A stretch of DNA of 45,952 nt from a virus (lineage: Duplodnaviria; Caudoviricetes): positions 1 to 45,952 of IMG/VR virus record IMGVR_UViG_3300049139_000096; one strand, given 5' to 3'. The notes under the pieces are model-generated. The model was not told the origin of the DNA and did not search any database. It saw nothing but the letters and a program-made list of their open reading frames with translations. How positions within the stretch are numbered: the stretch's first letter is position 1; every line of letters starts with the position of its first letter. Positions 1 through 38,831 of the stretch are shown in pieces. The position numbers were made by a program, and so were the translations under genes.

Positions 1-1122
1 GACGAACAGCCCCGCGACGCGCTCGGCCGCTATGAAGGCGGCCAGCCGCAGGTCGGCGACGAGCGCGTCGCGGGGCTGTTCGTCGAGCCGCAGGCAATGG
101 ATCGGTTGTTCGCGCAGGCCAACACGCCAGATGTTCGCGCCGCGATCCGCGACGAAGTTCTGTCCAAGGGCGATACGTCCAACGCGGACCGGATTAACAA
201 CTTCCTGACGGACTACAGCGAACAGGTCGATCGCTTCCCCGGGCTGCGTGACGAACTTACGCGGGCTGCTGAAGCGCGCGGCGCAGAGGCAACGGCCGCT
301 ACCAGCCGCCAGACCTTCGAGAAGATCTACGGCACGCCGCAGAACGAGCGTGGCACAGGCACGGTGGGCAAGTATCTGCAGTTCGGAGACGAGCAGTCGG
401 AACGGGCGATCAGCCAGGTTCTCTCTTCCAAGGATACGGCAAAGGCCGCCGACGAGCTCATGACGTTCGTTAACGACAATCCGCGCGCTGTCGAAGGCGC
501 ACGCGCTGCATTCTGGCAGAAGCTGAAGACGGAAAGCCAGAGTGTCGATAACACGCAGCGTTCCATGAGCGGCAAGCGTCAATGGCGCGGCGACTGGCTG
601 AAGTCGTGGCTCGACGAGCCCGGCACTGCATCGGTCGCCGAGCGGCTGTACCGCGACAAGCCGGAAGACCTGGAGAAGCTGCGGGCCTTCGCGGACGTCC
701 TGGACAATGCCGATCTGCGCACGCGCGGCAAGGCGTCCGGTACGTCCGGTACGTCGCAGGGCGTCAGCAACATCCTGTCGCCGGAAACGATCCAGAGCCG
801 ATCCTACGCCTGGATGCGCGGACAGATCAGCGGAACCTATCTGGCAACGTCGATGGCCGCTGTCTTCGCTCGTCGTGCCATCCGCGGCGCTCGCGCCGAT
901 GCGATTGAGCGGCTGACGGACAAGGCGCTGCTGAACCCGGAAATCGCCAAGGAACTGCTGAAGGACAACAACCCGGCTAACCGTGCGGCTCTCGCTCGCA
1001 AGGCGAAGGGCTGGCTCGGCAACGAGGCCGCGACAACCTTGGAGATCCTGAACGAGGATGATGACGACGACTTCGATGAAGTGAAGCGTACGATCATGAA
1101 CGGCGGCGGGGGAAGCTGGTAA
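1..1122 (+). CDS. C-terminal part of a large internal virion/DNA ejection protein (5'-partial)
   Basis: Frame 1 is open from base 1 to TAA at 1120-1122; helical Ala/Arg-rich protein; lies at the end of the structural operon; its N-terminus is probably the ORF starting at 45459. Confidence 0.6.
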   Translation, partial: DEQPRDALGRYEGGQPQVGDERVAGLFVEPQAMDRLFAQANTPDVRAAIRDEVLSKGDTSNADRINNFLTDYSEQVDRFPGLRDELTRAAEARGAEATAATSRQTFEKIYGTPQNERGTGTVGKYLQFGDEQSERAISQVLSSKDTAKAADELMTFVNDNPRAVEGARAAFWQKLKTESQSVDNTQRSMSGKRQWRGDWLKSWLDEPGTASVAERLYRDKPEDLEKLRAFADVLDNADLRTRGKASGTSGTSQGVSNILSPETIQSRSYAWMRGQISGTYLATSMAAVFARRAIRGARADAIERLTDKALLNPEIAKELLKDNNPANRAALARKAKGWLGNEAATTLEILNEDDDDDFDEVKRTIMNGGGGSW

Positions 1123-1850
1123 TGGCTGTTTTGGATCCTATGGCTATTGGCTCGGCCCTTGTCGGGGCGGGCGAAAGGCCGAACAGGTCGCAGATTAAGG
1201 AGTATCTGAAGAACGGCGGCGTCAATCTTGATCCGGTCACGACGGCCTGGTGTGCGGCCTACGTCAATTCGACGCTGGCGCAGGCCGGCTATCAGGGCAC
1301 TGGCTCCAACATGGCCCGCAGCTTCCTGAACTACGGGCAGAAGGTCGACCAGCCGCAGAAGGGCGATCTGGCGGTGTTCCAGCGCGGCGATCCGAACGGA
1401 CCATTCGGGCATGTCGGGTTCTTCGACGGCCTCAATCCAGACGGGACGATCCGCGTCCTCGGCGGCAACCAGAAGGACGCCGTCAACTATTCGAACTATG
1501 GGGCGGATAAGTTGCTCGGGTATCGCCGGCCCGTGAAGGCTGGCGAGGCTCCGGCGGCTCCCAGCATCGCGAATATGTACGCGCCCGAAGCGCCAAAGGG
1601 AGGGCCGACGATCGCGAATGCCGCGGCACTTGCGCAGCCTGCACTGCCGGGCGGTCCGATGGGCGCGCCTGTGCTTGGCGCTGAACAGCCTGTTATGCCC
1701 GCGCAGCAGAACCTGGGGCAGATGGCCGCGCTGTTCGCGCAGCAACAGTCGAAGAAGAACGAGCAGCGGGCAGCGGAAGAAGCGGCCGAGCAGACCCGGC
1801 GCGCGGCGCTATTCAGCCAGGATAGTCTGGCCGGACTGTTTGGTGCGTAG
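1122..1850 (+). CDS. TIGR02594-family NlpC/P60/CHAP-like peptidoglycan hydrolase
   Basis: Motifs TAWCAAYVN, ARSFLNYG, GDLAVFQRG, GHVGFF, VLGGNQ; low-complexity Pro/Ala/Gln tail; TAATG overlap with the upstream gene. Confidence 0.8.
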   Translation: MAVLDPMAIGSALVGAGERPNRSQIKEYLKNGGVNLDPVTTAWCAAYVNSTLAQAGYQGTGSNMARSFLNYGQKVDQPQKGDLAVFQRGDPNGPFGHVGFFDGLNPDGTIRVLGGNQKDAVNYSNYGADKLLGYRRPVKAGEAPAAPSIANMYAPEAPKGGPTIANAAALAQPALPGGPMGAPVLGAEQPVMPAQQNLGQMAALFAQQQSKKNEQRAAEEAAEQTRRAALFSQDSLAGLFGA

Positions 1851-2003
1851 CCACTCAATAGGCTTCACTTCCCCGTCCTCGTAAACATGCGGCGGGTGGT
1901 CTTTGTTGAAAAGAAAGATCCGCCCATTGTGCTTAAGCATCGTCCAGCTTGTATCGCTGTTCGGCAACACCGCTACGAGCGTGGCCTTGGATGTAAGCGT
2001 CAT
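1809..2003 (-). CDS. hypothetical protein
   Basis: MTLTSK...; ATGA overlap with the upstream minus-strand ORF. Confidence 0.45.
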   Translation of the reverse strand: MTLTSKATLVAVLPNSDTSWTMLKHNGRIFLFNKDHPPHVYEDGEVKPIEWLRTKQSGQTILAE

Positions 2004-2152
2004 TGTACGATCCCTTCCACGAAGCGCACGACGGCGCCGAACTCGTCCGTGAAGAAGTAGAAGAACGCCCAAAGCAGGACGAGCCCGATCAGGAGCGCCG
2101 GGAAGAACTCGGCGGCGAAGGATCTCCAGAACGGCGGTGTGCTTCTAGCCAT
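2000..2152 (-). CDS. small membrane protein
   Basis: MARSTPPF... with hydrophobic segment FFPALLIGLVLLWAFFYFF; overlaps neighbours on both sides. Confidence 0.5.
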   Translation of the reverse strand: MARSTPPFWRSFAAEFFPALLIGLVLLWAFFYFFTDEFGAVVRFVEGIVQ

Positions 2153-2417
2153 GCTGAGGAGCATCGGGCTCTCCATCGGTTTTGTCAACGGCGAGGGCGG
2201 CGTCAAGTTCATCCTTCGACCAGCTAAGGCCTACGTCCCTACGCCCGTATTTCTCAATAACCCGCTTAAACTCATGCAGGATGTAGAATGGCCTATTGCC
2301 ACTGGAGTACCCACCGAGGTTATTTGCTTGAAGATCGCGCCACAGTAGCTCGGCGTCAGCGAGAATTTCTTTACGCTCTTGCTCGGAAAAAAGGTCCGGG
2401 AGTTTTCGTGCGGTCAT
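2145..2417 (-). CDS. hypothetical protein
   Basis: 90 aa ORF with AGGAG RBS upstream. Confidence 0.6.
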   Translation of the reverse strand: MTARKLPDLFSEQERKEILADAELLWRDLQANNLGGYSSGNRPFYILHEFKRVIEKYGRRDVGLSWSKDELDAALAVDKTDGEPDAPQHG

Positions 2418-2441
2418 GTCGTTTCTCCTGTGCGCACTCGT

Positions 2442-2727
2442 GAGTGCCCAAAATAGTGCCCAAGTTGCTGTATGTCAGGCAGTCGGCCTGTTGTAGGCCA
2501 ACCGCTAAGTCATTGCATTGGAAGGAGAAAAAGTGGTGCTGCTAGAGAGATTTGAACTCTCGGCCTCTCCCTTACCAATACAGTTGTAGGTTATTTGTAG
2601 GTCGTTGTGTGGTAAGCACCTTCCCTGTAATGCAAGGCTTTGTCGAGATCTTTGTAGGTCAGTGTCTGTCGTTGTAGGTCAAAACCAGTGCCCGAATTGC
2701 GCACAAGTGCTCATCGGGAGTGCTCAA
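2442..2727. repeat. putative integrase arm-type sites AGTGC[CT]C[AG] flanking the attP core
   Basis: AGTGCCCA at ~2443 and ~2455; AGTGCCCG at ~2687; AGTGCTCA at ~2706 and ~2719. Confidence 0.6.
2534..2578 (-). mobile_element. attP: attP core = 3' half of tRNA-Thr(GGT)
   Basis: Reverse complement reads TTGGTAA-GGGAG-AGGCC-GAGAGTTCAAATCTCTC-TAGCAGCACCA (anticodon loop to CCA); the 5' half of the tRNA is absent; lies near the integrase. Confidence 0.9.
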
Positions 2728-2730
2728 GTT

Positions 2731-5003: not shown

Positions 5004-5255
5004 ATGGTATTTGATACAATGCGGTTTATAGATGACCACTTGGTCAACGCGGACGCCGTCGTCGGCCTTGCCAACCATTTGCGCGTTGACGTTCCGACCA
5101 AAGATACGTTGCGAAAATGGTTCACCCGTGGCTCTATTCCCGGGGAGTGGTGGCCTGTTATGCTGGCTCTTTTGGAAAAGGACGCAGGAAGACCTGTAAG
5201 TCTCGTTCAGTACCTCGAGGGAGGAACAGTGCATGTCGCAGATATCTTTGCTTGA
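5004..5255 (+). CDS. Cro-like small DNA-binding protein
   Basis: First gene divergent from the repressor; TLRKWFTRGSIPGEWW resembles a Cro/YdaS HTH; GAGG RBS. Confidence 0.6.
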   Translation: MVFDTMRFIDDHLVNADAVVGLANHLRVDVPTKDTLRKWFTRGSIPGEWWPVMLALLEKDAGRPVSLVQYLEGGTVHVADIFA

Positions 5256-5478
5256 TGAAAAAACGCTCCGCGAACTTGAGACTGCACGCCTTTGGGATCT
5301 GCGCCAAGACCTCCGAAAGGTTAGAACTGACCATCTTTGGTCCGGAGAGGGCGCTTTTGAGGTACGCGACGAATTAGATTTGCTCGCTTCGATGGGCACC
5401 TGTCCGGCGGTTGTCCGGCACGCCCGCAAGGCAATAGCCGAGATAGACCGGACATGGCCGCATGTTGCTGTCGCATGA
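5233..5478 (+). CDS. hypothetical protein
   Basis: GGAGG RBS; overlaps both neighbours. Confidence 0.6.
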   Translation: MSQISLLDEKTLRELETARLWDLRQDLRKVRTDHLWSGEGAFEVRDELDLLASMGTCPAVVRHARKAIAEIDRTWPHVAVA

Positions 5479-5900
5479 TAGAGATCGTTTTGTTGGGCGC
5501 CCCTCGCGGTAAAGAGCGCCCGCGGCTGACAAAAGCCGGCCACGTCTACACTCCTGAAAAGACGCGCGACTACGAGGCCGCGCTGAAATACGCCGCCAAG
5601 GAAGCGATGGGCGATCGCCCTCCCTTGGATGGGCCGCTACAGATCGATATGATCGTAAACATGCCCATTGCCCGCTCATGGCCGAAGAAGCGCCAGGAAG
5701 CTGCGCGGGCCGGACGGGAGAGGCCGACAAAAAAGCCCGATTATGATAACTTCGCCAAGGTCGTTGATGCTTTGAACCTCGTTGTCTGGATTGACGATGC
5801 GCAAGTAGTGGACGGCAGGATACAGAAATTCTACAGCGACAAGCCGGGAATGCACATCACAGTGCGGCCCCTCCAACCGACAGAAGGGATATTTGGATGA
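5475..5900 (+). CDS. rusA: RusA-like Holliday junction resolvase
   Basis: PRGKERPR...YTPEKTRDYE...KKPDYDNFAKVVDALN...WIDDAQVV. Confidence 0.9.
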   Translation: MIEIVLLGAPRGKERPRLTKAGHVYTPEKTRDYEAALKYAAKEAMGDRPPLDGPLQIDMIVNMPIARSWPKKRQEAARAGRERPTKKPDYDNFAKVVDALNLVVWIDDAQVVDGRIQKFYSDKPGMHITVRPLQPTEGIFG

Positions 5901-6427: not shown

Positions 6428-6526
6428 CTTTTGTGTCTTCCATGTATGTTATGATGACATACAACGCCGGACACGCCCTGACTAACATGCTTCCATCGCT
6501 TTCATCGCTAACATCGGACGACCGCT

Positions 6527-7882
6527 TTGCGCTACATTCCCTTTCAGCATCAGATAGACGGCGCGAAGTTCCTGGCGGAACGAGACGCTGGCCTGCTCGC
6601 AGACGAACCGCGTGTCGGCAAAACCGGCGCTGCCATCATGGCCGCCGACATGAACCTCGAAGAGAAGATCCTGGTCATAACGACCGCGTCGGGCCGTCCT
6701 GTATGGAACCGCGCCTTCCGTGACTGGTCGCCGTTCAACCGCGACGTCCAGGTCATATCCAAGGCCACCGACACACTGAAGTCGGCGTGCGCCATCGTCG
6801 GATGGGGCGGGGCGCCTTCGCCCCAGATACGATCCATGCTGCTGCGCCGTAAGTGGGACAGGATAATCTCCGATGAAGACCATATGGCAAAGTCTTTTGA
6901 GGCTGCGCGCACTCGCGCCCTCTATGGAGAACCCCACGAAGACGGCGCGCTCGTCAACACCAGCACGGCCCTGATACGCGCAGCAGAAGGTAAAGTGTGG
7001 TGCCTGACCGGCACGCCGCAGCCCTCCGACCCGCGCGACTGGTATCCGCGGCTCCGGTCGCTGCGCCCCGGCTGCCTGAAGGCCCACGGCGACATGCCGG
7101 ACGTCACGAAGTTCAGCCACTTCATGCACCGCTACGGCGAATATCGCTTCAAGAAGATCGGCAACGGCTGGAAGAAAGTTCCCGTCTTCATCAAGGGCAA
7201 GAACCTGGCCGAGCTCAATGCCCGGATCGGCGATTTCATGCTCCTGCGGACGCAGCAGGACGTCGGCATCCGCGAACCGATCTACGACATCCTGCCGCTC
7301 GCCATATCGCCCGCCATGCGTCGCGAAGCCGAAGGCGACCTGAAATCCGAACAGATCATCGCGGCCGCCGAGAACGGCGATACCCGGGCGCTGGAAATGC
7401 ACCTTGGCCCGCTTCGGCGCCTGACGGGCGAGATCAAGGCCCACGCCGTCGTCGAAGCCGTCAAGGACGAGTTCGCCTGCGGGCTCGACAAGATCGTGCT
7501 GGCGTACTGGCACAAGGACGTCGGGCAAGTCCTGAAAGACGGCCTTTCAACGTATGGCGTTGTCGGCATTGACGGCTCGACGCCAACCAACATTCGCGGG
7601 GCGGCCGAACAGCGCTTCCTGCACGATCCATCGGTCCGCGTCTTCCTCGGCCAGATCCAGGCTGCAGGCGAGGCGATCGATCTCTCATCAGCGGCGAACC
7701 TTTGGTTCGTCGAAACCAGCTTCACCCCGAAAGACATGAAGCAAATGTCGCTCCGGGTGACGAACCACACGCAGACCCGCCAAGTCCTCGTCCGGGTGTG
7801 CGTGATGGAAAACTCCATCGACGAGGCGTTGCAAGAGATCCTGGTCCGTAAGTGGTCGGCGATCCGAGAAGTGCTCAAATAG
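6527..7882 (+). CDS. SNF2-like superfamily 2 helicase
   Basis: PFQHQIDG (Q motif), LADEPRVGKT (I), SDEDH (II), LTGTP (III), AAGEAIDL (V); TTG start is uncertain. Confidence 0.85.
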   Translation: MRYIPFQHQIDGAKFLAERDAGLLADEPRVGKTGAAIMAADMNLEEKILVITTASGRPVWNRAFRDWSPFNRDVQVISKATDTLKSACAIVGWGGAPSPQIRSMLLRRKWDRIISDEDHMAKSFEAARTRALYGEPHEDGALVNTSTALIRAAEGKVWCLTGTPQPSDPRDWYPRLRSLRPGCLKAHGDMPDVTKFSHFMHRYGEYRFKKIGNGWKKVPVFIKGKNLAELNARIGDFMLLRTQQDVGIREPIYDILPLAISPAMRREAEGDLKSEQIIAAAENGDTRALEMHLGPLRRLTGEIKAHAVVEAVKDEFACGLDKIVLAYWHKDVGQVLKDGLSTYGVVGIDGSTPTNIRGAAEQRFLHDPSVRVFLGQIQAAGEAIDLSSAANLWFVETSFTPKDMKQMSLRVTNHTQTRQVLVRVCVMENSIDEALQEILVRKWSAIREVLK

Positions 7883-7893: not shown

Positions 7894-8580
7894 ATGGCAG
7901 TTCGAATTGAAATTTACACCACTTCTGACGCGGGGCTACCCGAAAAGGAGCAAATTGACCAAAGCATGATCGCGCTCGGCTTTGTCCGGCAATCCTATCT
8001 TGGGGAACGCCGAGTTGCAGTCGAAAACGGCAAGACTTACCTTACGCACGAAGATCTCAGCCCTCCGGGACTTATTGAGGGCGGCAGGTCGACTGTGACT
8101 GGAGACGTCGAAGTCCAGTCCGGGCAGGCAGACGTCAAGCGCGAACGCGGCAAGCCCGCCCCGGGCCGTGCCCGCCGCACCAAGGAAGAGATAGCCGAGG
8201 ACGAAGCAGCCGATAAGGCTGAAGCGGCGACCGGCCAGACCATCTCGACCGGCGGCGAGCGTGTCGGCCCGGAAGACGACGCGGCGACACAGGAGCAGGA
8301 CAAGGCCGACGAACAGGCCGAAGTGGCCGCCTCGCGCGACACCGTCAAGCCCCTTACGATCGACGACGTCAAGCAGGCGGTCGGCCTGTACGTCGCCAAG
8401 CACGGTCTGCCGGCGACCAACGAGGACGGGCCGAACATCTTCACGGACGTTCTCGGCGCGCCGCCGGAAGGCAACCCGTTCTGGAAGATGTCCATCTTGC
8501 CTGACGACCAGAAGAAGCTGGCCGTCTGCGTCAAGGCATGGACGGACGCCGCTGCGGCTGAAACCCGGTACGGAGCCTGA
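7894..8580 (+). CDS. hypothetical acidic protein
   Basis: AGGAG RBS; position upstream of DUF2800 is typical. Confidence 0.7.
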   Translation: MAVRIEIYTTSDAGLPEKEQIDQSMIALGFVRQSYLGERRVAVENGKTYLTHEDLSPPGLIEGGRSTVTGDVEVQSGQADVKRERGKPAPGRARRTKEEIAEDEAADKAEAATGQTISTGGERVGPEDDAATQEQDKADEQAEVAASRDTVKPLTIDDVKQAVGLYVAKHGLPATNEDGPNIFTDVLGAPPEGNPFWKMSILPDDQKKLAVCVKAWTDAAAAETRYGA

Positions 8581-8581
8581 G

Positions 8582-8905
8582 ATGTACAAGAAGCTCCTAC
8601 TTTCCGCCGCCGCAGCTGTCGGACTTAAGTCCGGTATGGCCGCCAACGCTCGTTTCGCCTTTGGTAAGACCTTCGGGGAGCGGCCTACGAAACGGAAGCC
8701 GGAGCGGCGCGTAGCCGCACCGATCGCCAGCACGAAAAGGGCTCGGCGCCGCGCAGAAGCGCAGTCACGTTTCGACCGCCAGATCGAGAAGGAACGCGCT
8801 ATCGGCGTGGACCCGATCTTCCTGCACGGTTCCAGCCTCCGTAAGGACGCGTTGCGGCCGGGCTGGCTGAAGAAGAGCGCCGAGTGGGATCGGGCGCATG
8901 GCTGA
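8582..8905 (+). CDS. hypothetical basic protein
   Basis: MYKKLLLS...; GGAG RBS; overlaps the next gene. Confidence 0.55.
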   Translation: MYKKLLLSAAAAVGLKSGMAANARFAFGKTFGERPTKRKPERRVAAPIASTKRARRRAEAQSRFDRQIEKERAIGVDPIFLHGSSLRKDALRPGWLKKSAEWDRAHG

Positions 8906-10190
8906 CCACGCCGCCCGCGATCACGCTACCTGGTCTGCCAGTTCCACGGAACGGAATTGGCAGTGCAGCGGGGCGTTGGCCCTCACTATCGATCTGCCGG
9001 AGAAAAACTCGGAAGCGGCCGATTGGGGGACCGTGGCACACATGATCGCCGAAACCTGCCTGCGCAAAGGCGACCAGGCCGACAGCTTCATAGGCACGAC
9101 AAGGAAGGGCAAGGTCCACTCCTTCGAAGTCGATGAAGAGATGGCCGACACTGCGCAGCAATTCGTCGACTACGTGCGGCAGACAGCAATCGCTGCCGCG
9201 CCCAACAAGAAAGCTCCTGCCGATCTCATCCAGATCGAACAGAAGTTCAGCCTCGCCGCCATGAACCCGCCTTTCGAGGCAGGGGGAACAGCGGATGCCG
9301 TGATCTACAAGCCGCTCCTGAAGGAACTCGAAGTCGTGGACCTGAAGGGCGGGCGAGGGCATGTCGTCGAAGTGAAGGGCAATCCCCAGCTGCGCACGTA
9401 TGCCCTTGGCGCGATGCTCGCGAATAGCAAGCTGGTCGTCGAAAAGGTCACGGTGACGATCGTCCAGCCGCGTGCTCCGCACAAGGACGGACGTATTAGG
9501 TCGGAAACCTTCCATGTGGCCGATCTGGCTGAGTGGACGGCCGATCTGATGGAAGCGATGAAGCGGTCAAAGGAAGCGTTCTCTGACATGGAGAAGGTGG
9601 ACTGCAACCTCATTCCGCAGGCGCTGTGGAACAAGGTGCATCTCAAAGCCGGAAGCCATTGCAAATTCTGCAAAGCGGCGGGGTTCTGCCCCGCATTGGA
9701 GCAGAAGGCTATGGACGAGGCGGCTGTCTGGTTTGACGACCAAGACCAGCCACGCATATCCAACACGCCGGACCAGATGGCTCCGGAAGTGCTGGCGCAG
9801 AAGCTCGACGCTCTCGACATGATCGAGGACTGGATCAAGGCAGTCCGTGCCCGCGCGCACGAACAGGCCGAGCAGGGCGTCGAGATCCCGAACTACATCC
9901 TGGTCCCGAAAACGGGCCGGGAGAAGTGGGCCGAAGACGCCGAGGACAAGGCGGCGGCGATCGCAAAGAAGGCCGGGCTATCGGACGAGAAGGTGTTCAA
10001 CGCACCGAAGATCCGCACGCCCAAGCAGGTTCGCGACGCCCTCGCCAAAGCCAAGGCAGACGCTGCCCTGAAGGAGATCAAGGAACTGTCCTTCACTCCG
10101 GAGAACGGGAGCAACCTCGTGAGATCGACCAAAACGATGCGCTCGGCCATTGCGCCGGCCGCTCACAAGCATTTCGACATTCTCGATTAA
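8898..10190 (+). CDS. DUF2800 Cas4-like PD-(D/E)XK exonuclease
   Basis: HATWSASSTERNWQC, GTVAH, IEQK, GGTAD, VVDLKGG, NPQLRTYALG, C-x2-C-x5-C. Confidence 0.85.
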   Translation: MADHAARDHATWSASSTERNWQCSGALALTIDLPEKNSEAADWGTVAHMIAETCLRKGDQADSFIGTTRKGKVHSFEVDEEMADTAQQFVDYVRQTAIAAAPNKKAPADLIQIEQKFSLAAMNPPFEAGGTADAVIYKPLLKELEVVDLKGGRGHVVEVKGNPQLRTYALGAMLANSKLVVEKVTVTIVQPRAPHKDGRIRSETFHVADLAEWTADLMEAMKRSKEAFSDMEKVDCNLIPQALWNKVHLKAGSHCKFCKAAGFCPALEQKAMDEAAVWFDDQDQPRISNTPDQMAPEVLAQKLDALDMIEDWIKAVRARAHEQAEQGVEIPNYILVPKTGREKWAEDAEDKAAAIAKKAGLSDEKVFNAPKIRTPKQVRDALAKAKADAALKEIKELSFTPENGSNLVRSTKTMRSAIAPAAHKHFDILD

Positions 10191-10212: not shown

Positions 10213-10842
10213 ATGGCTCGTAGTGAAGACGTAAAGACCCCTTTGGCCGTTGTTGCCTTCGCGCACAACATGTTCGAACTGCAGGAACGCAAAGGTGGCA
10301 AAAAGGGCTTCGGCTGCTCGCTGTTGTTCAAGAAAGGCGCGGACATATCCGTGCTGGAAGCAGCTGCGCTTGAGGCCGCCAAGGAAGAATGGGGCGACAA
10401 GGCCGTCCAGATGATTAAGGACGAGATCATCAAGACCCCGTTCCTGGATGGCGACGGCAAGCAGGGCAAGAACAAGGAAACTGGCGAGCCGCACAAAGGC
10501 TTTCCCGGCCATCGCTTCATTCGCTGCGTGTCTGGCCCCGACTTCAAGCCGAAGGTTTGGGACAAGAAGCGCAACGCGATCTTCGACAAGGCCGAATGCC
10601 CATCCGGCAGCCAAGGCTACGGCGTCGTGAACGCCTTCACCTGGACGAACGACGAGGGCGGCAAGGGCATTTCTTTCGGCATCAGCCACTTCCAGGTAGC
10701 GAAGAAGGCCGAAGGCGAAGAGGTTCTTGGCGGCGGTGGCGGCGGGCCGGATCCGGACAAGTTCTTCGAGAAGATCGAAGACGAGGGCGACGCTCCCGAT
10801 CAGACGAAGGGCGGCGCAGGCGCTGCCGGTCTTTTCGGCTAA
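10213..10842 (+). CDS. DUF2815/gp2.5-like ssDNA-binding protein
   Basis: Synteny after DUF2800; PFLDGD, GKGISFGI..FQ motif, acidic C-terminus. Confidence 0.8.
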   Translation: MARSEDVKTPLAVVAFAHNMFELQERKGGKKGFGCSLLFKKGADISVLEAAALEAAKEEWGDKAVQMIKDEIIKTPFLDGDGKQGKNKETGEPHKGFPGHRFIRCVSGPDFKPKVWDKKRNAIFDKAECPSGSQGYGVVNAFTWTNDEGGKGISFGISHFQVAKKAEGEEVLGGGGGGPDPDKFFEKIEDEGDAPDQTKGGAGAAGLFG

Positions 10843-11224: not shown

Positions 11225-11463
11225 TGGCTGACCGCACCATTCAAGAGCGCGTCATTGACGTGTTGAAGGAGCAGACCAGCGTCGTCAGCATCGATCCGAC
11301 GTTCACCTTCCGGGGCGATCTCAACTTCGACAGTCTGGATATCGTCGAGACTACGCTGATGGTCGAAGAAGAGTTCGGCTTCCAGATCGACGAAGAAGAT
11401 GTCGGCAAGTTCGACACTGTCGGCCAGCTGGTCGTCTACATGGAGGGCCGGATCAATGGCTGA
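11221..11463 (+). CDS. acpP: acyl carrier protein
   Basis: DLNFDSLDIVE...EEEFGFQI.EE....FDTVGQLV: acidic ~80 aa ACP with the phosphopantetheine Ser in DSL. Confidence 0.9.
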   Translation: MMADRTIQERVIDVLKEQTSVVSIDPTFTFRGDLNFDSLDIVETTLMVEEEFGFQIDEEDVGKFDTVGQLVVYMEGRING

Positions 11464-11710
11464 TCTCAACGGTGGCGATAACGCCCACGCAGTCGCAGTC
11501 AATCAACTTCGGACCTTCGTCGAGCGCATCGAGCGCTTGGAAGAAGAGAAGGCAACACTCGCTGAGGACATCGCAAAAGTGAAGAAGGAGGCGAAAGCCG
11601 CCGGCTTCGACAGCAAGGCCCTGTCTGTCGCCTTGTCGCTTCGCAAGAAGGACGAGGGCACGCTGCAGGTCATCAAGACCTATGCGGATGCACTCGGGAT
11701 CTTCGGCTGA
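11456..11710 (+). CDS. gapR: DUF2312/GapR-like DNA-binding protein
   Basis: QLRTFVERIERLEEEKATLAEDI..VKKEAKAAGFD.KAL...LRKKD; GGAGG RBS. Confidence 0.9.
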   Translation: MADLNGGDNAHAVAVNQLRTFVERIERLEEEKATLAEDIAKVKKEAKAAGFDSKALSVALSLRKKDEGTLQVIKTYADALGIFG

Positions 11711-11925
11711 TGCCTACGCTCGACCAAGCACTGCAGGAGGCCGGCAAGTCCGGCCTTCGCGCCCTCACCGTATGGAAGCTACCGGACGGTCGCTGGCAGG
11801 CCAATACGTCGCCGGACGGCCAGGCCTGGACCTGCGTCACGGACGCCGATCTGGTCGCCGCCGTGAAGGGCGCGCTGGGCGTGAAGCCTGCGGCGGCCGC
11901 ACCGACAGGGAGCATCTTCGAATGA
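11710..11925 (+). CDS. hypothetical protein
   Basis: TGATG and ATGA coupling on either side. Confidence 0.6.
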   Translation: MPTLDQALQEAGKSGLRALTVWKLPDGRWQANTSPDGQAWTCVTDADLVAAVKGALGVKPAAAAPTGSIFE

Positions 11926-12920
11926 TCGATATCTATCAGGGCGACTGCCGGGATGTCCTGGCGATGATGCCTTCGGCATCCGTAAATTGCATCGTTACAA
12001 GCCCGCCGTATTTCGGCCTCCGCGACTACGGCGTCGACGGCCAGATCGGGCTTGAAGAAACACCGGATGGTTTCGTAGCAGAGATGACGGCGGTGTTTCG
12101 AGAGGCGCGGCGGGTACTGCGTGACGACGGGACGTTATGGCTTAATCTTGGCGACAGCTACGCCGGCAGTTGGGGCGCGCAGGGTCACAGAGAAAGCAGC
12201 ACCAATGACCAGCGCGTTAGTCGACACCAGATCTCCAACCACCCAAAGCGCGCGACACGCACCGGCGCTATACGTCAAGAAGGCCTGAAACCGAAAGATT
12301 TGATTGGCATTCCTTGGCGGGTCGCTTTCGCGCTCCAGGCCGACGGCTGGTATTTGCGCCAGGACATTATTTGGCACAAGCCGAACCCAATGCCGGAAAG
12401 CGTACAGGATCGCTGCACCAAAGCGCACGAATACATCTTTCTGTTCTCAAAGTCGCCGAAATATTACTTCGACACTGAGGCAATCAAGGAGCCGGCCGTG
12501 ACCAGCGAACAGGATCTGAAGCGCGCTAAAATTACGGGCAGGGGCACGCAATCCTCGTCATCGGCTTACCTCGGAGGGGCGCAACGCGATAAGTCCGGGG
12601 GTTTCCCACAAGCAGATCTCGCTAACCCTGTGCGCAACCGCCGATCTGTCTGGACTGTATCGACGAAGCCATTCAAGGAAGCGCACTTCGCGACCTTCCC
12701 GCCTGATCTTATCGAACCCTGCGTGCTTGCTGGTTGCCCCGCCGGCGGGACGGTGCTGGACCCCTTCTTCGGCGCCGGCACAACCGCGCTTGTCGCGGCG
12801 CGCACCGGACGAAACGCCGTCGGAATAGAACTAAGCCAGGACTACATCGACATCGCCAAGCGCCGCCTCGGCCTGTCCTCGATGTCTGAAATGACGAACG
12901 ACAAAGGGATATTCGGATGA
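11922..12920 (+). CDS. beta-class N4-cytosine/N6-adenine DNA methyltransferase
   Basis: IYQGDC, VTSPPY (motif IV) precedes VLDPFFGAGTT (motif I); no cognate endonuclease adjacent. Confidence 0.92.
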   Translation: MIDIYQGDCRDVLAMMPSASVNCIVTSPPYFGLRDYGVDGQIGLEETPDGFVAEMTAVFREARRVLRDDGTLWLNLGDSYAGSWGAQGHRESSTNDQRVSRHQISNHPKRATRTGAIRQEGLKPKDLIGIPWRVAFALQADGWYLRQDIIWHKPNPMPESVQDRCTKAHEYIFLFSKSPKYYFDTEAIKEPAVTSEQDLKRAKITGRGTQSSSSAYLGGAQRDKSGGFPQADLANPVRNRRSVWTVSTKPFKEAHFATFPPDLIEPCVLAGCPAGGTVLDPFFGAGTTALVAARTGRNAVGIELSQDYIDIAKRRLGLSSMSEMTNDKGIFG

Positions 12921-13009
12921 CGTTTTTCCGCGGACTGCTTATCGCCCTTCCCGCCAGCATCGCCATATGGTGCGCGCTCGGCTTCCTCGCTTGGCTGGTA
13001 GTGTCATGA
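12917..13009 (+). CDS. 30-aa membrane peptide (not in the ORF track)
   Basis: MTFFRGLLIALPASIAIWCALGFLAWLVVS*; ATGA overlaps with both the MTase and the polymerase. Confidence 0.6.
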   Translation: MTFFRGLLIALPASIAIWCALGFLAWLVVS

Positions 13010-20666: not shown

Positions 20667-20888
20667 ATGGCCCCAGGGCCGAACACCACGATAACCACCA
20701 TGCGGATGCCGAAAGCGCTCATGAAGATGATCGACCGGCGCGCCGCCAAGCTGGCGATATCCCGAACCCGGTTCGTCGAATGGGTGCTGCGCGACTACTG
20801 CGCAAAGTCCGACGCGGAGATACGCGACATCGTCACAGCGCCAGCCAAGGAGATACCCGAAGATGGGCAAATCGATCTCTTTGGATGA
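20667..20888 (+). CDS. ribbon-helix-helix (CopG/Arc-like) regulator
   Basis: TITTMRMPKALMKMIDRRAAKLAISRTRFVEWVL; GGAG RBS. Confidence 0.75.
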   Translation: MAPGPNTTITTMRMPKALMKMIDRRAAKLAISRTRFVEWVLRDYCAKSDAEIRDIVTAPAKEIPEDGQIDLFG

Positions 20889-21099
20889 CGTCCGGGCTGG
20901 CAACCCCGAGCTCTCTTTCAGCCTGTACGCCTACGCGGGCTCCCAGGTCACGCTCGAGGTCATCACGCCGGACGAACAGATCTTCCGTTTCGACGGCCCC
21001 ACCGAGGCTGCCGTTCTGGCCGAAGCATTCCCGGTTCCCGACGACCCTGTTGTCGAAGAAGCGGAACGACATGAACCGACACCCAACATCTTCGACTGA
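20863..21099 (+). CDS. hypothetical protein
   Basis: AGGAG RBS; compact operon. Confidence 0.6.
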   Translation: MGKSISLDDVRAGNPELSFSLYAYAGSQVTLEVITPDEQIFRFDGPTEAAVLAEAFPVPDDPVVEEAERHEPTPNIFD

Positions 21100-23720: not shown

Positions 23721-24290
23721 ATGTCTAACAGATCAGATAACCCCCCGCAACACAAAGCGGGTGAAAACGCAACATCTAGTATCCGTGCTATCGAAACAAC
23801 GTATCGCGGCTACAAGTTCCGATCCCGTCTCGAAGCCCGATGGGCGGTGTTCCTCGATCACATGCGCCACGACTGGACCTATGAACCCGAAGGCTTCCAG
23901 CTGCCGTCAGTGTGGTATCTGCCCGACTTTCACCTGACGAAGATGGATGTCTTCATCGAGATCAAACCGAGCGAGCCGACTGAACGCGAGAAGCAAATTG
24001 CGCGTGAGATGACCGAAGGCGGCAGGAATTACGTGTTGTTTTACGGGTCGGATCCAGGCTCCGTCTTCTCGGGCTGGACATGGCCTAAGAACACAGCGCA
24101 CGGATTACCGAACCAGTGGGACTGGACCGGCTTTGAGCATCCCGGCATGTGGCTTCCAGATCTGAGGCGAATAGGCCCTGGCTTGCTAGTGTTCCTCGGA
24201 ACGTTGTGCTGGAAACAGCAGATCACTCATCGCGCCTGTGAAGCTGCGCGTCAGGCTCGCTTCGAGCACGGTCAGTCAGGTGCGGCATGA
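23721..24290 (+). CDS. PD-(D/E)XK nuclease-family protein
   Basis: YRGYKFRSRLEARWAVFLD...YEPEGF...YLPDF...FIEIKP. Confidence 0.8.
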   Translation: MSNRSDNPPQHKAGENATSSIRAIETTYRGYKFRSRLEARWAVFLDHMRHDWTYEPEGFQLPSVWYLPDFHLTKMDVFIEIKPSEPTEREKQIAREMTEGGRNYVLFYGSDPGSVFSGWTWPKNTAHGLPNQWDWTGFEHPGMWLPDLRRIGPGLLVFLGTLCWKQQITHRACEAARQARFEHGQSGAA

Positions 24291-26398
24291 ACATGACCTC
24301 ACGTTTCGACGCCTTCAAGGCATGGTGGGATAACGGCTTCCGCGATCTGATCCCGGTTATCCCGCCTGACGCCAAGATCTCTCCGACTAGCTATATCGCC
24401 AAGAACGACGGCGCCGGCAAAGCACCAGGCGTCATGTACAACAGCGGCCTATGGGGCGGAATGCCCGGCTGGCGCGAGCACCAGACGACAGAACAGGATC
24501 TCGCGTCCTGGTTCGTCATGGGCGCGTCGGTCGGCCTTCGTCGTGGTGCTGCGTTCATGCTCGACATCGACGCCTACGATGCTGACGTGGCTGACATGAT
24601 CGAACAGGCCGCCATTGAGATGCTTGGGCCTGCACCCATACGTGTCGGCCAGTGGCCGAAGCGGGCGCTACTCTATAAAGCTGACGGTCCGATATCTGGC
24701 CTCAAAGTGACGTTCGAAGGTCCGGGCGCAAAACCAAGCCAGATTGAAGTACCCGCTCAGACTGTGATCTATGGTGTCCACAAGAAGACGGGCAAGCCCT
24801 ATGACTGGCCGCGGAAGCCGGTAGGCATCGATAAGCTCTCCGTCGTCAGCGCAGACAAGCTAAATGCATTTATGGAGCATATGCGTCGCAAGCTGCCGAA
24901 GGCGCAACGGTCAGACGTCGCCAGTTCGTCCGATCGAGACAAGATCGACCAACGCAAGCTGATGGGCGATCCCGACTTGGTCGCAGCGGCGGTCAGGCGG
25001 CTCCCCAACACGCAGGAAGCCTTTCCGACTTACGACGACATGATCCGCGTGCTCAACGCCATCAGCGCAGCCCTGCCAGCGCACCGCGATCTTGCGAACG
25101 AGCTGGCGCATGACTGGTGCTCGCGGTGGGAAGGCGGCGACTACGACCACGATCTGACGGAACGGCGCATCGCGACCGTCAAGCCGCCGCACTCATTCGG
25201 GGCTGCTTTTCTTTACAAGGAAGCCGACCGCCTAAACCCGATGCCTGACGGCAAATCGTTCGTGGCGATGTCGATCTTCGAAGCCCTCCCTGATCCAGAA
25301 ATTGATCTAAACCTTTTTAATACCCAGGAGCCCGAAAAGCCCAAGGACACGTTCCGGCTGTTGACGATCGACGAGATCCTGCACCGTCCGAAGCCTACCT
25401 GGCTGATTGAGCGTCATATCCCCGACAAGGCGGTCGGTTTCATGTATTCCGAGCCTGGCGCCGGCAAGTCCTTCCTAGCCCTCGATATGGCCCTCTCAAT
25501 CGCCCATAACCTGGACAACTGGCAGGGCGATAGCCTGAAGCAGCAGGACGACGCAGTCGTCGTTTACATCGCAGCAGAAGGCGCCTTCGATTTCGGAACC
25601 CGTGTCAAGGCCTGGCACAAGGCCCGTCACATCGAAAATTTATCTAAACGCTTTTACATCATCGAGCAGACGATCAACTTCATGAAGCCCGAGGACGTCG
25701 ACAAGCTGCTTCGAACGCTCAAAACTGTCGAGCCTCTACGTCCGGCCCTTGTCGTGGTGGACACCGTCTCCCGTGCCTTGCCTGGCGCAGATGAGAACCT
25801 GCAGAAAGACATGACGCGTTTCGTCCAGGCCTGCGACGCGGTGCGCGATACATTCGACTGTGCCGTGCTGGGGATCCACCATGCGGGCAAGTCTGGCGAT
25901 ATGCGCGGCTCTACGGTTCTGCTTGGTGCTGGCGATTTCGTGTTTAGGCTGCAGCGCAAGAAAGGCGCGACGATCGGCAACCTGTTCTGTGAGAAACAGA
26001 AAGCCGCGCCTGACGGGTGGGAGGAGCCTTACAGGTTCGACCTGGTTGTGGTGGGCGAGGGCGAGACGTCGCTTGTACCGTCGCGCGCAGATATGAGCGT
26101 TGGCCCTTCTGTGGAGCTCACGCCTGACACGTCTGCGCGCGTCCTGGCGGCAATGAGGGCGGCATGGGATGAGGGCGAACCCTGGTCAAAAGCACCCCAG
26201 GCAAAGGAACGTTACGCGGTTCGACGCATGGTGACAGACTTCGGATTTGACGGAGTTAAGGCAGAGGAGACGCTTAAGATTTGGGAAGCGTCAGGACTAA
26301 TATCGGTGGAAATGAAGTCCAGCAAGCATCGGATTAGCGGTTTTAAGGTGGGGGAAGGGGTCGGACATTCTGTCCAGATGGACGGCATTTTCGGCTAG
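24287..26398 (+). CDS. bifunctional primase-polymerase / AAA_25 (RepA-like) helicase
   Basis: N-terminal prim-pol (GLRRG..FMLDID), PriCT-like middle, SEPGAGKS Walker A, YIAAEG, VVVDT, IHHAGKS, RGST. Confidence 0.9.
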   Translation: MNMTSRFDAFKAWWDNGFRDLIPVIPPDAKISPTSYIAKNDGAGKAPGVMYNSGLWGGMPGWREHQTTEQDLASWFVMGASVGLRRGAAFMLDIDAYDADVADMIEQAAIEMLGPAPIRVGQWPKRALLYKADGPISGLKVTFEGPGAKPSQIEVPAQTVIYGVHKKTGKPYDWPRKPVGIDKLSVVSADKLNAFMEHMRRKLPKAQRSDVASSSDRDKIDQRKLMGDPDLVAAAVRRLPNTQEAFPTYDDMIRVLNAISAALPAHRDLANELAHDWCSRWEGGDYDHDLTERRIATVKPPHSFGAAFLYKEADRLNPMPDGKSFVAMSIFEALPDPEIDLNLFNTQEPEKPKDTFRLLTIDEILHRPKPTWLIERHIPDKAVGFMYSEPGAGKSFLALDMALSIAHNLDNWQGDSLKQQDDAVVVYIAAEGAFDFGTRVKAWHKARHIENLSKRFYIIEQTINFMKPEDVDKLLRTLKTVEPLRPALVVVDTVSRALPGADENLQKDMTRFVQACDAVRDTFDCAVLGIHHAGKSGDMRGSTVLLGAGDFVFRLQRKKGATIGNLFCEKQKAAPDGWEEPYRFDLVVVGEGETSLVPSRADMSVGPSVELTPDTSARVLAAMRAAWDEGEPWSKAPQAKERYAVRRMVTDFGFDGVKAEETLKIWEASGLISVEMKSSKHRISGFKVGEGVGHSVQMDGIFG

Positions 26399-27725: not shown

Positions 27726-28211
27726 ATGCCTAGAAAAGGCGGGAAGCTGACCCCTATGGAACGGACATGGGCAGAGCGATATGCGGCAACCGGGGATCAC
27801 GTTTATGCAGCCGAAAAGGCCGGATATCGCCAACCGAGTGTTAGAGCGCTGGAAAATATGAAAGACCCTGCAGTCATGGCGACGGTGGCCGTCCAGGTCG
27901 GACGCAAGCTGGAGCAGCACGCGGTCGCCGCTGTTGATGTGCTCGCGGGCATCATGAACAACGTGAAGTCAAAGGATGGCGACCGGATCAAGGCAGCTGA
28001 TCGGATCCTCGTACACCTGGCGGCACGCGGGGAAGGCAACGGCAAAGAACCGCATGAGATGACGCTGGCAGACATCGAGGCGCGCAGGGCAGCGTTGGAG
28101 GCCGAACGCGACGCACTCAATCACATGGCTGCAGAACGCTCGCGACCAGTGATGGAGCTTGAGGCCTCGACGATCGACGAGACAGCCGATGACATGGGCA
28201 TTTTGGGGTAG
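27726..28211 (+). CDS. terS: terminase small subunit
   Basis: LTPMERTWAERY..TG....AAEKAGY.....A...MKDP.V...DRIKAA. Confidence 0.8.
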   Translation: MPRKGGKLTPMERTWAERYAATGDHVYAAEKAGYRQPSVRALENMKDPAVMATVAVQVGRKLEQHAVAAVDVLAGIMNNVKSKDGDRIKAADRILVHLAARGEGNGKEPHEMTLADIEARRAALEAERDALNHMAAERSRPVMELEASTIDETADDMGILG

Positions 28212-31342: not shown

Positions 31343-31786
31343 GTGCCGTCACCAGAACAGATCTCCTCACAGCTTGCAGACATTCAACGAACTCTTGGAA
31401 CCTTGCTCGGGGAGAGCAAGAGGGCCGAGGAAGATCGTCACCAGGCCAACGGGCATCGCGAGCGCATCTATGAGCGCATCGACGAATTGCGGGAAGAGAT
31501 GGATAAGCGTTTCGCCCGCACCGACGAGAGCATCGCCATATCCGGATCGATTGCGGCGCAAGCCCGCGATCAGGCAGCACAGGCCAGAGAGCGCGCCGCC
31601 GAAGTGAAGAAGCTCGTCGACGAGGAGATCAAGCCGCAGACGGACGACTATCGGCGAATGCGGACTATGGGCAACGGTTTCATGATCGCTGTCGCGCTCG
31701 CTGCCGGAACGCTCGGCATCACATTCTCGTCGGTCGTGAAGGCGTTTTTGGCGGGCGTCACGAACTCCCTCACGGGGCGCGGCTGA
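31343..31786 (+). CDS. coiled-coil protein with C-terminal TM (DUF1515-like, possible holin)
   Basis: Long coiled coil then FMIAVALAAGTLGITF; lies between the lysis genes and TerL. Confidence 0.55.
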   Translation: MPSPEQISSQLADIQRTLGTLLGESKRAEEDRHQANGHRERIYERIDELREEMDKRFARTDESIAISGSIAAQARDQAAQARERAAEVKKLVDEEIKPQTDDYRRMRTMGNGFMIAVALAAGTLGITFSSVVKAFLAGVTNSLTGRG

Positions 31787-33456
31787 TGACCAAGCGCGGC
31801 ATCAACCCGAAGACCGGAAAACGGTACGCCTGGGAAGAGGAACAGGCCGCGCTGAAGGCTCAGTCCGTCGATCTGGTGGCCGTCGAGAAGCAGCTTTCGC
31901 TTCTGAAACGCCAGCAGAAAGCGCTCGAAGCCCGTGACGACTTCCTGACTTTCATCAAGTTCACGTCTCCGGATCCCCTTGATCCGAACGACGTCGACAA
32001 GTCCAGCTACAAGGACGCCAAGCACCACCGCGCGATCGCGAAGGTGATCGAGAGCATCATCAAGGGCAAGGTCGACTACACGTTCGTCATTCTCACGATG
32101 CCACCGCGCCACGGAAAGTCTGAACAGGTTTCCCGGCGACTGCCGGCGTGGCTGATGGGGCTTTTCCCGGAGCAGCATGGCGTCGTCGCGACCTATAACG
32201 ACGATTTCGCCGCGGACTTCGGAAAGGATGTGCGCGGCATCATCAAGTCGCACCAGTTCAAGCAGGTATTCCCCAACGCGCAGCTGACACGCGGCGGCGC
32301 GGCTTCCGACAAGCTGCAGACGACCAAGGGTGGCCGATGGGCGTTCGTTGGTCGTGGCGGCGGCCTGACGGGCCAGGGCGCCCATGTGCTGATCTGCGAC
32401 GACCTTATAAAGGACGACAAGGAGGCACAGTCGAAGGCGGTCCGCGACCAGGCGTGGAGTTGGTTCACGAAGGTCGCTATGACCCGTCGTATGGGCCGCA
32501 AGGTCGTCATCCTGACGTTTACGCGCTGGCACAGCGACGATCCGATCGGCCGTCTTACGGATCCGGAAAACCCGCACTACAACCGCAAGATCGCCGAGAA
32601 GATCAAGATTATCAACATCCCGGCGATCGCCGAGGACGACGATCCGCTCGGTCGCGCTATTGGTGAGCCGCTGTGGCCGGATGGCCCCGATAAGTTCGAT
32701 CTGGACTTCCTCGAGGAACAGCAGAGCCTTGACCCGCTCGGCTTTGCTGCGCTGTATCAGCAACGGCCGTCATTGCTCGATGGTGATCTCTTCAAGCGCG
32801 AGGATATCAAGTTTTACGGGCAGGGCACGCCAAACACGCTACCGGAAGATCTCCGGATCTATTGCGCGTCCGACCATGCTGTCGGGACCAATCAGCGTAA
32901 TGACCCGTCTTGCTTCCTGAAGATCGGCATGGACCGAAATAACGACATTTACCTGCTGGAATGTGTCTGGCGGAAGATGAAGACCGACATCGCAGTTGAA
33001 GCGATGCTGACAATGGCCGGCGGCAAGTTCAAGCCGCTGCTGTGGTGGGCGGAAAAGGGGCACATATCGAAGTCGATCGGGCCGTTCCTGAAGAAGCGTA
33101 TGGTGGAAACGGGCACCTACTTCAACATCCGTGAAGTCACGCCGGCATCCGACAAGGTGCAGCGCGCGCAGTCGATTGCCGCTCGCGTTGCCGTGGGCAA
33201 GGTTTACTTCCCGAAGAACGAGCTTTGGACTGAAAAAGCGATCAACGAGATGATGGCTTTCCCCAATGGCACACATGACGACTTTGTCGACACGTTGGCC
33301 TATATCGGGCTTGGCCTACAAAGCCAGTTCGCGCCGGGCAATTCTTCTGCTAAAAAGGAAATCGAAAAACCCGCATTTGGAACTTTGGCCTGGGTTAAAC
33401 TGGCCGATCGATGGGCGAATGAACAGAAGGCCATCAAGCAGGCCGGAGGCTTTTGA
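31786..33456 (+). CDS. terL: terminase large subunit
   Basis: MPPRHGKSE Walker A, LICDD Walker B, TRWH.DD, ALYQQRP, FPNGTHDDFVD. Confidence 0.95.
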   Translation: MTKRGINPKTGKRYAWEEEQAALKAQSVDLVAVEKQLSLLKRQQKALEARDDFLTFIKFTSPDPLDPNDVDKSSYKDAKHHRAIAKVIESIIKGKVDYTFVILTMPPRHGKSEQVSRRLPAWLMGLFPEQHGVVATYNDDFAADFGKDVRGIIKSHQFKQVFPNAQLTRGGAASDKLQTTKGGRWAFVGRGGGLTGQGAHVLICDDLIKDDKEAQSKAVRDQAWSWFTKVAMTRRMGRKVVILTFTRWHSDDPIGRLTDPENPHYNRKIAEKIKIINIPAIAEDDDPLGRAIGEPLWPDGPDKFDLDFLEEQQSLDPLGFAALYQQRPSLLDGDLFKREDIKFYGQGTPNTLPEDLRIYCASDHAVGTNQRNDPSCFLKIGMDRNNDIYLLECVWRKMKTDIAVEAMLTMAGGKFKPLLWWAEKGHISKSIGPFLKKRMVETGTYFNIREVTPASDKVQRAQSIAARVAVGKVYFPKNELWTEKAINEMMAFPNGTHDDFVDTLAYIGLGLQSQFAPGNSSAKKEIEKPAFGTLAWVKLADRWANEQKAIKQAGGF

Positions 33457-35660: not shown

Positions 35661-35728
35661 GTCGTTGTCTGGTATGACTTGCGACAACGGCAGACATGCA
35701 GTATTTCTAACCGTGCAAAGGAGCAAAA

Positions 35729-36721: not shown

Positions 36722-36745
36722 CTATGAAGTCAGAGGTCTAAAGGA

Positions 36746-37825: not shown

Positions 37826-37835
37826 GACATAGGCT

Positions 37836-37861
37836 GACGGCGCCAGAGCGCCGTCGCTTTC
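37836..37861 (+). terminator. hairpin/terminator after the capsid gene
   Basis: GACGGCGC-CAGA-GCGCCGTC-GCTTTC. Confidence 0.55.
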
Positions 37862-37886
37862 GTCAATCACTCGAAGGAGCACCGAA

Positions 37887-38219
37887 ATGGGCGCTATCGC
37901 TAATGCAAAATTCACACTCGCCGCGGCTGTAGCTAACGCTGCAACCGTAACAATGGCCTATCCGGCCGGTACAACTCAGGCTTCTCTGACGGGCAGCACT
38001 GGCGGATCTGTCATGGTCGGTCAGGACGGCCCGTATCGTCAGGGAGTGGGCGTCGAAATCGCGTTCGGCGCGTCGCTCATCACGATCACCAACAACACCG
38101 GGTTTACCTGGCCTGCTGGTGCAGAACTCATCGCCAGCTTCGGCCGGACCGATATCAACGGTTCGTACAACCTAACCTATCCGAAGCAGATCCAGGACAA
38201 GGTTAACGCCTTGGCCTAA
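37887..38219 (+). CDS. virion structural protein (possible decoration protein)
   Basis: Ala/Gly/Thr-rich beta protein after the MCP; AAGGAG RBS. Confidence 0.6.
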   Translation: MGAIANAKFTLAAAVANAATVTMAYPAGTTQASLTGSTGGSVMVGQDGPYRQGVGVEIAFGASLITITNNTGFTWPAGAELIASFGRTDINGSYNLTYPKQIQDKVNALA

Positions 38220-38227
38220 CCGCCAAG

Positions 38228-38259
38228 AGAACGGGGCTCCGGTCCCGTTCTTCTTTCTT
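38228..38259 (+). terminator. intrinsic terminator
   Basis: AGAACGGGGC-TCCG-GTCCCGTTCT-TCTTTCTT. Confidence 0.7.
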
Positions 38260-38279
38260 GCTAACCAGAGGATATCCCC

Positions 38280-38831
38280 ATGCAAACAGCATCACTGCTT
38301 CTCGCCCTTGGTGGCGATGGAACCATGACCGTTCCGAAATACGGCGTCACGCCAGCCGAGGTTCTGCTTTTGCGGGCCATCCACGGCGAGGAAGCTGTCA
38401 CTGACATCGACATCCAGGACGGAGAAGCCAAGTCGATCGATAACGACGAGAAGAAGCGCACGTCCCGCGAGGAACGCGCCCGGTTGTTCGAACAGTACGC
38501 CAAGGTCACTCCGGACGGCGGAACTAAACTGCCGCAGCTGGACGCACTCTTCCCGGGCGTATCGGCAAAGCTGCCGGAAACCTTCGGTGAACTTGAACTG
38601 GACGACGCCTTCTACAAGGCGGAAGGCCGCAAGACACCTGAAAAGGTCGACGCCGATAACGAAGGCGAGACTTCCTACAAGTTAAAGACGGTTGACCAGT
38701 TGAAGGCACTCGCCGAGGAACGTGAGGTCGATCTCGGCGACGCGAAGAAGAAAGACGACATCATCGCGAAGCTGGAAGAAGCCGATACCGCTGCTGGCGG
38801 TGAAGGCGGCAATCAGAACCTCTTCCAGTAA
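38280..38831 (+). CDS. hypothetical protein with C-terminal HeH/Rho-N-like domain
   Basis: KTVDQLKALAEEREVDLGDAKKKDDIIAKL. Confidence 0.65.
   Translation: MQTASLLLALGGDGTMTVPKYGVTPAEVLLLRAIHGEEAVTDIDIQDGEAKSIDNDEKKRTSREERARLFEQYAKVTPDGGTKLPQLDALFPGVSAKLPETFGELELDDAFYKAEGRKTPEKVDADNEGETSYKLKTVDQLKALAEEREVDLGDAKKKDDIIAKLEEADTAAGGEGGNQNLFQ

Follow-up and report, generated by a model that had tools for sequence, protein, structure and literature searches.

A shared C-terminal tail in a rhizobial podovirus

We analysed a stretch of DNA of 45,952 bases (hereafter the window), which is the whole of IMG/VR virus record IMGVR_UViG_3300049139_000096 and in which unrelated proteins end in nearly the same four residues. 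The window is a temperate rhizobial podovirus. Pfam, PHROGs and NCBIfam matches place in it an integrase, a repressor, RusA, an SNF2 helicase, a Cas4-like DUF2800 exonuclease, an Enc34/DUF2815 SSB (PF10991), a GapR-like protein, a methylase, a family A DNA polymerase (PF00476; hereafter Pol A), a primase-helicase, terminase and virion genes. The nearest cultured phage is Rhizobium phage RHph_N65, with a primase and polymerase identity of 57.5%.

An earlier note on this DNA had listed twelve proteins with a shared C-terminal tag. All twelve ends were found in the sequence, on the + strand, written in synonymous codons and followed by all three stop codons. The strict pattern [ILVM]-F-x-stop fits 10 of the 12, the exceptions being the terminase small subunit (TerS; MGILG, with Leu for Phe) and the TIGR02594 protein (GLFGA, one residue off). 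The ends of the RusA and methyltransferase genes, said to share 17 of 18 nucleotides (nt), in fact share 16 of the last 18. The Cas4-like exonuclease, ending in DILD, may be a weak thirteenth case. These genes are given below with the share of homologs or genomes that carry the tag; residues are counted back from the C-terminus, the last being -1, and ORF denotes an open reading frame.

1122..1850 (+): TIGR02594/CHAP protein, ends GLFGA, one residue out of register; homologs 3/8 strict, 5/8 broad.
5004..5255 (+): Cro-like protein (weak NCBIfam match), ends ADIFA; 10/18 homologs tagged.
5475..5900 (+): RusA resolvase, ends EGIFG; tagged in 15/16 genomes.
8898..10190 (+): Cas4-like DUF2800 exonuclease, ends DILD, a weak form of the tag; 3/20 strict.
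10213..10842 (+): Enc34/DUF2815 SSB, ends AGLFG; 18/20 tagged; likely source of the tag.
11456..11710 (+): GapR-like protein, ends LGIFG; tagged in 20/20 genomes, host GapR untagged.
11710..11925 (+): orphan protein of 71 residues (ORF11710), ends GSIFE; 16/17 tagged.
11922..12920 (+): N6/N4 DNA methyltransferase, ends KGIFG; 7/8 tagged.
20667..20888 (+): RHH-like protein, ends QIDLFG; 12/12 tagged; the sole family often with Gln at -6 (4/12).
20863..21099 (+): orphan protein of 78 residues (ORF20863), ends PNIFD; 17/19 tagged.
24287..26398 (+): primase-helicase, ends DGIFG; 17/19 tagged.
27726..28211 (+): TerS (weak label), ends MGILG; Phe at -2 in 15/18 homologs.
38280..38831 (+): head-module protein (ORF38280) with a weak Rho_N-like match, ends QNLFQ; 8/19-20 strict, 12/20 broad.

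The labels of RusA, the methyltransferase, the GapR-like protein, the SSB and the AAA_25 primase-helicase come from Pfam and PHROGs, as does the weak one of TerS. The TIGR02594 label is above the cut-off, and the Cro-like and RHH labels stem only from sub-cut-off matches.

The tag is enriched over both controls that had been suggested. Ten of 64 window genes carry it, compared with 5 of 347 genes in 400 kb of Rhodopseudomonas (Fisher p = 7e-6), and one of these five resembles a prophage primase of this phage's primase family. Nine of the ten came from a codon-based gene caller; the Cro-like ORF was added by hand, replacing an overlapping call. When the last 20 residues of each gene were shuffled, tagged ends numbered 0.55 on average and at most 5 in 20,000 trials. 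Among the non-gene ORFs of the window, 5 of 460 end in [ILVM]-F-x-stop, the Cro-like ORF being one of the five.

The tag is conserved across related phages at a fixed register

Relatives were gathered by similarity to the SSB and not by the tag; a genome scan with a single SSB query gave no match, and a scan with an SSB alignment gave 6 loci. The genomes with related loci are labelled Rhodopseudomonas, Aminobacter, Rhizobium, Hyphomicrobium, Parvibaculaceae and one Cellvibrionaceae bin. We assembled 22 genomes, comprising 19 IMG/VR records fetched whole, RHph_N65, the partial record of EBPR siphovirus 2 and the window, and left out four further records. Two genomes, G024 (0/61 genes) and G026 (0/29 genes), had no strict tag and were excluded; clade counts cover the remaining 20.

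Across these 20 genomes 200 of 1283 genes are tagged (43 families; 5 to 13 per genome), as expected from the proposal that related phages would conserve the tag. The consensus tail is [GDSN]-[IVL]-F-[GDAES], with G in 77, D in 57, S in 34 and N in 16 of the 200 tags at -4, and I in 83, V in 74 and L in 40 at -3. The register is fixed, as [ILVM]-F has its Phe at -2 in 200 of the 1283 genes versus 1-12 at each of the other seven terminal positions. The ten residues preceding the tag are more acidic and small, with fewer hydrophobic residues, than in untagged genes, a composition that puts the tag on a polar tail and agrees with the earlier description of a flexible tail beyond the conserved domain. 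The tag was never present on integrase, capsid, portal, the terminase large subunit (TerL), Pol A (0/19), SNF2 (0/20) or ORF7894 (0/18). TerL (31786..33456, +) ends in AGGF in 13/19 genomes, a conserved terminal Phe in another register.

Selection acts on the peptide

That selection acts on the peptide and not on a DNA repeat is supported by the synonymous codons, by gene-overlap counts and by agreement within genomes at -3. There, Ile or Val agrees across unrelated families of one genome in 135 of 157 cases (permutation mean 104, maximum 119). Several families also shift together, to Ala-Phe-Gly in G015 and to Ala-Leu-Gly in G026, and shared synonymous codons show no excess within versus between genomes (0.557 vs 0.551). 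From such concerted variants without shared codons we infer one reader, differing between phages, and the pattern suggests that it needs a free C-terminus.

Alternatively, the tail could be a by-product of DNA, left by ribosome-binding sites of overlapping downstream genes or by copied gene ends. Several window tags do share bases with the next start, a purine-rich stretch lying upstream, and a 17-nt stretch found before tags in the window is found again before tags in G021. However, overlap with the next gene is rarer at tagged ends (75/200) than at untagged ones (522/1083), 101 tagged ends have gaps of at least 20 nt, Phe codons (TTC:TTT = 160:40) match genome usage, and the codon comparison above shows no within-genome excess. 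Both ribosome-site coupling and DNA copying of gene ends were rejected on these counts, and a DNA by-product is largely refuted, its probability close to nil. The 17-nt stretch itself (window 12887-12903; three G021 gene ends) stands shortly before some tags and occurs once in G009, on the reverse strand, before a palindrome; either a DNA site or a shuffled gene end could explain it.

The tag tracks a phage module rather than the host

The tag is linked to the phage's own module of Pol A, SSB, Cas4 and SNF2 genes rather than to the host. GapR is tagged in 20/20 genomes with this module versus 0/74 distinct phage loci without it, "without" meaning that within 10 kb an SSB was lacking and module genes numbered one at most. 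These loci came from a scan with a host GapR query that covered part of the viral collection, in which we took the best 80 of 549 viral relatives and dropped 4 duplicates and 1 miss; the sole module-bearing locus among them was tagged, and its genome had already been counted. Where genes were called, the neighbourhoods of the 74 loci hold 0 or 1 tagged gene.

Bacterial GapR, expected to lack the tag, does so in all three chromosomal copies (0/3), and three prophage copies in the same genomes are tagged. This comparison covered ten loci: the 3 host and 3 prophage copies, 1 untagged copy with another tail, 2 in which the search pattern gave no ORF and 1 with the wrong ORF. RusA follows the same pattern, being tagged at 7/7 loci with the module and 2/14 without, both of the latter beside an SNF2 gene (p = 3e-4; 22/23 loci examined, 1 duplicate dropped). 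Nothing weighs more heavily against a host reader, for example DnaN or a host protease, than the absence of the tag from module-less GapR loci together with the RusA pattern.

Two further readings were considered. In the first, the tail would be a shortened beta-clamp-binding motif that places phage proteins on DnaN, a hub suggested in the earlier note. Host DnaE carries an internal Q-x-[DN]-[MIL]-F-G in 3/4 genomes, the last four residues of which match the tag, and phage Mu C uses clamp motifs (PMC12867686). The RHH-like tails with Gln at -6 also fit, and the clamp idea could hold for that family alone. Yet Gln is not enriched at this position over all tags (11/200, or 5.5%, vs 3.8% background), the DnaE motif lies inside the protein and the tag always at its very end, and the tag is absent from the 74 module-less loci. 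Moreover, phages whose hosts are close relatives differ in the variant, and the polymerase has neither the tag nor a conserved internal copy, which leaves docking on DnaN improbable. A phage-encoded clamp or loader had no match among 49 ORFs searched with Pfam and PHROGs, nor was there a universal clamp-sized orphan (small orphans were not folded).

In the second, the tail would set when DNA-bound phage proteins are turned over, as a C-terminal degron or a signal to a chaperone. Degrons are the usual cause of a strictly terminal motif shared by unrelated proteins, and Lon reads the last three residues of its substrates (PMC11986505). The Lon His-degron has an x-[LI]-[LIV]-H end, however, and is weakened by Asp substitutions (PMC11986505), whereas the last residue of the tag is Asp or Glu in 60/200 and His in 0/200. 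No protease is common to all tagged genomes, and a host protease would leave the module link unexplained. The phage-encoded chaperone partner that had been suggested is also rare:

18883..19560 (-): J-domain protein, in 3/23 records and 5/22 related genomes; excluded as a general reader.

We rejected this protein, and with it a J-domain/DnaK hub, on that rarity, and a turnover signal of any kind has a low probability. Conjugation through a C-terminal Gly is likewise disfavoured, Gly being the last residue in 84/200 and not invariant. What stands of the phage-wide docking code proposed earlier is docking to a single hub, which the distribution of the tag would support; clamp, J-domain/DnaK, Lon His-degron and Gly-conjugation hubs are disfavoured, and an SSB-tail-like pocket on a phage replication protein is the sole suggested option to survive as a candidate.

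The SSB tail as the likely source

SSB homologs end in [LMV]-F-x in 119 of the best 120 of 406. Judged by these ends, the tag appears to copy the phage SSB tail, and the SSB is its likely source. As for the SSB binding its own tail, the predicted monomer leaves the last residues, 197-207, disordered (pLDDT under 50) and says little on intermolecular binding.

Inspection by eye of 18 phage records that are more distant but have related polymerases showed other shared ends. PspYZU01 has a Leu-Ile end on seven genes, BPP-1 has [DG]-L-[VI] on SSB, Cas4, TerS and a methylase, BcepC6B, K1G and Otaku have D-L-[AE] on Cas4 and primase, and Ralstonia phage DU_RP_II has Phe-type tails. The tests given below agree only in part with the impression that each distant module phage carries its own broad tag.

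The SSB itself varies among the distant module phages. In three of them (L008, L012 and L013) it ends in x-P-F, like host SSB, and SNF2 ends in Q-L-F-x. In the K1G, Otaku and Dhillonvirus records (W08, W07, W13) it ends in an Arg run, and Cas4 and primase share an acidic-Leu end.

Candidate readers within the module

Three untagged proteins of the window are candidate readers:

13006..15204 (+): Pol A, tagged in 0/29 module phages; first candidate.
7894..8580 (+): ORF7894, 0/18 tagged; second candidate.
6527..7882 (+): SNF2 helicase, 0/20 tagged; minor candidate.

In T7, the primase-helicase gp4 and the SSB gp2.5 use acidic C-terminal tails to bind the gp5 polymerase at basic patches (PMC12593628, PMC12339929). 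The tail [GDSN]-[IVL]-F-x-COOH, a peptide under selection, agrees with the C-terminus of the phage's own SSB. We propose that its Phe and free C-terminus would dock into one pocket within the replication module of the phage, the family A DNA polymerase being the most likely site. The SSB and primase-helicase would use this pocket as their T7 counterparts use gp5. GapR, RusA, the methylases, the Cro-like and RHH-like regulators and TerS would have gained a mimic tail, would compete for the same pocket and would thereby be brought to replicating phage DNA.

Among the families that occur both in the podoviruses and in the partial record of the EBPR siphovirus are SNF2, Cas4, SSB, GapR, Pol A and ORF7894. 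Among core members, only Pol A never carries the shared tail of its genome (0/29 module phages); SSB, primase, Cas4, SNF2 and an ORF7894-like protein each do so somewhere. Its structure model (pLDDT 92) has a Pol I-like fold with a strand-rich stretch at residues 580-648. That the reader, whichever protein it is, belongs to the module seems probable. Pol A in particular is put forward tentatively, and SSB-like tail docking in a replication-module pocket, most likely on Pol A, is as a whole our best explanation, with a likelihood that falls somewhat short of even.

Several observations weigh against Pol A docking. The Ile/Val variant fits the Pol A tree worst, with 5 changes in FastTree (shuffled mean 8.7, minimum 5) and 6 in IQ-TREE; the ORF7894, SNF2, Cas4 and SSB trees need 2-4 in FastTree. 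With 17% D/E at -14 to -5, the tails do not reach the acidity of the long, acidic SSB tails of PMC5686142, the key residue is penultimate and not terminal, and a polymerase role for TerS, the CHAP protein or ORF38280 is not obvious. To call the module absent, only genes within 10 kb were considered. Finally, the pattern is weak in distant cultured phages: primase tails resemble those of their own SSB at p = 0.039 and of their own Cas4 at p = 0.017 (11 genomes each), SSB and Cas4 tails compare at p = 0.45 (16 genomes), and a genome-wide motif test gave p<0.05 in 2/18. The same test gave p<0.05 in 5/6 sets from the window's relatives, the miss being G024. Because the objective tests are weak in distant phages, the broad form with a dozen clients is established for the window's clade only.

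The same docking code might instead be read by ORF7894, which has a short N-terminal segment, a low-complexity linker and a helical C-domain of ~75 residues; this domain would bind the tails, acting as an adaptor on a long linker and perhaps passing clients to the adjoining SNF2 translocase or Cas4 exonuclease. This protein is untagged in 18/18 and present in all tagged genomes checked, and by eye a similar one lies upstream of Cas4 across distant module phages. Its hydrophobic F183 and W216 show the best association with the Ile/Val variant among untagged families (p = 7e-6), and its FastTree tree needs the fewest variant changes (2-3). A precedent exists in the three-helix Red-beta C-domain, which is needed to bind the SSB C-terminal peptide (PMC6393309). 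However, the two columns were chosen after the fact, and the association comes down to 2-3 independent pairs, at which it is not significant, and is not independent of kinship. IQ-TREE gives 5 changes, so that the tree result depends on method, and the PspYZU01 counterpart is itself tagged. Family searches with ORF7894 returned nothing usable, and no homology to Red-beta or Orf was found. ORF7894 as reader is somewhat less likely than Pol A. Naming the reader by covariation was abandoned as confounded by kinship and method-dependent.

Carried further, this alternative would have module phages run a private, lineage-specific address code into which new genes are plugged by a four-residue copy of the SSB tail. 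An apparently universal ORF7894 adaptor would be the reader, and through it the SNF2 translocase may receive tagged proteins bound to DNA, to load or strip them. We regard this extended version as quite unlikely.

Other genes of the window

An acyl carrier protein gene (11221-11463, +) lies between SSB and GapR and was found in 4 of the SSB loci. The ORF at 97-1122 (+) probably belongs to a longer gene whose front part is cut off at the record start, since its homologs have a median length of 977 residues. A BTLCP transglutaminase-like protease (15732-16211, +) lies beside an ORF of 867 residues (16208-18811, -), in a stretch of lower GC content; an NCBIfam search with the latter gave no match.

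Relation to known docking systems

Docking of SSB-like tails on Pol A would be closest to T7. The Enc34 SSB family is T7 gp2.5-like (PMC5686142), and the two systems share this T7-type SSB fold family, a family A polymerase that is itself untagged, and a terminal tail with a key Phe on both SSB (18/20) and primase-helicase (17/19). Where T7 has 2 clients, there are ~12 here, among them regulators, methylases, RusA and TerS; Phe stands at -2 rather than -1, and the upstream residues have little acidity.

In T4, the C-terminal tails of gp43, gp33 and gp55 bind gp45. The tag resembles these as a phage-private docking tail that links replication to other functions, and differs in that no clamp or loader was detected here and the polymerase is untagged. 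Use of the T4 clamp is also mentioned in PMC12867686. With the beta-clamp motif QL[SD]LF, including that of phage Mu C (PMC12867686), the tag shares a short hydrophobic motif with an [SD]-L-F-like end on unrelated DNA-acting proteins, although most tags lack Gln, keep a strict terminal register and are tied to a phage module, not the host. Host SSB and its readers, such as the lambda Red-beta C-domain (PMC6393309), likewise offer a terminal hydrophobic tip and, as candidate reader, a small helical domain encoded near an exonuclease. There, however, one tail meets many pockets, whereas here many proteins copy one tail; host SSBs in our set end in D[DE]IPF, in another register than the tag.

The earlier note knew of no description of such a system, and our literature search, judged from titles and abstract openings and covering few subscription journals, found none on a genome-wide SSB-tail mimic. 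The tag is real and well controlled, and as a variant of tail docking it is apparently undescribed. GapR, found with and without the tag, provides a natural comparison of the states before and after tag gain, and the cultured RHph_N65 makes the docking idea testable now. If it is true, one self-encoded docking site, and no sliding clamp, would serve to organise a sixth of the proteins of a 46-kb phage. A widespread orphan or an unmapped polymerase surface would gain a function, and the last four residues would offer a means of assigning orphan genes to the replication machinery.

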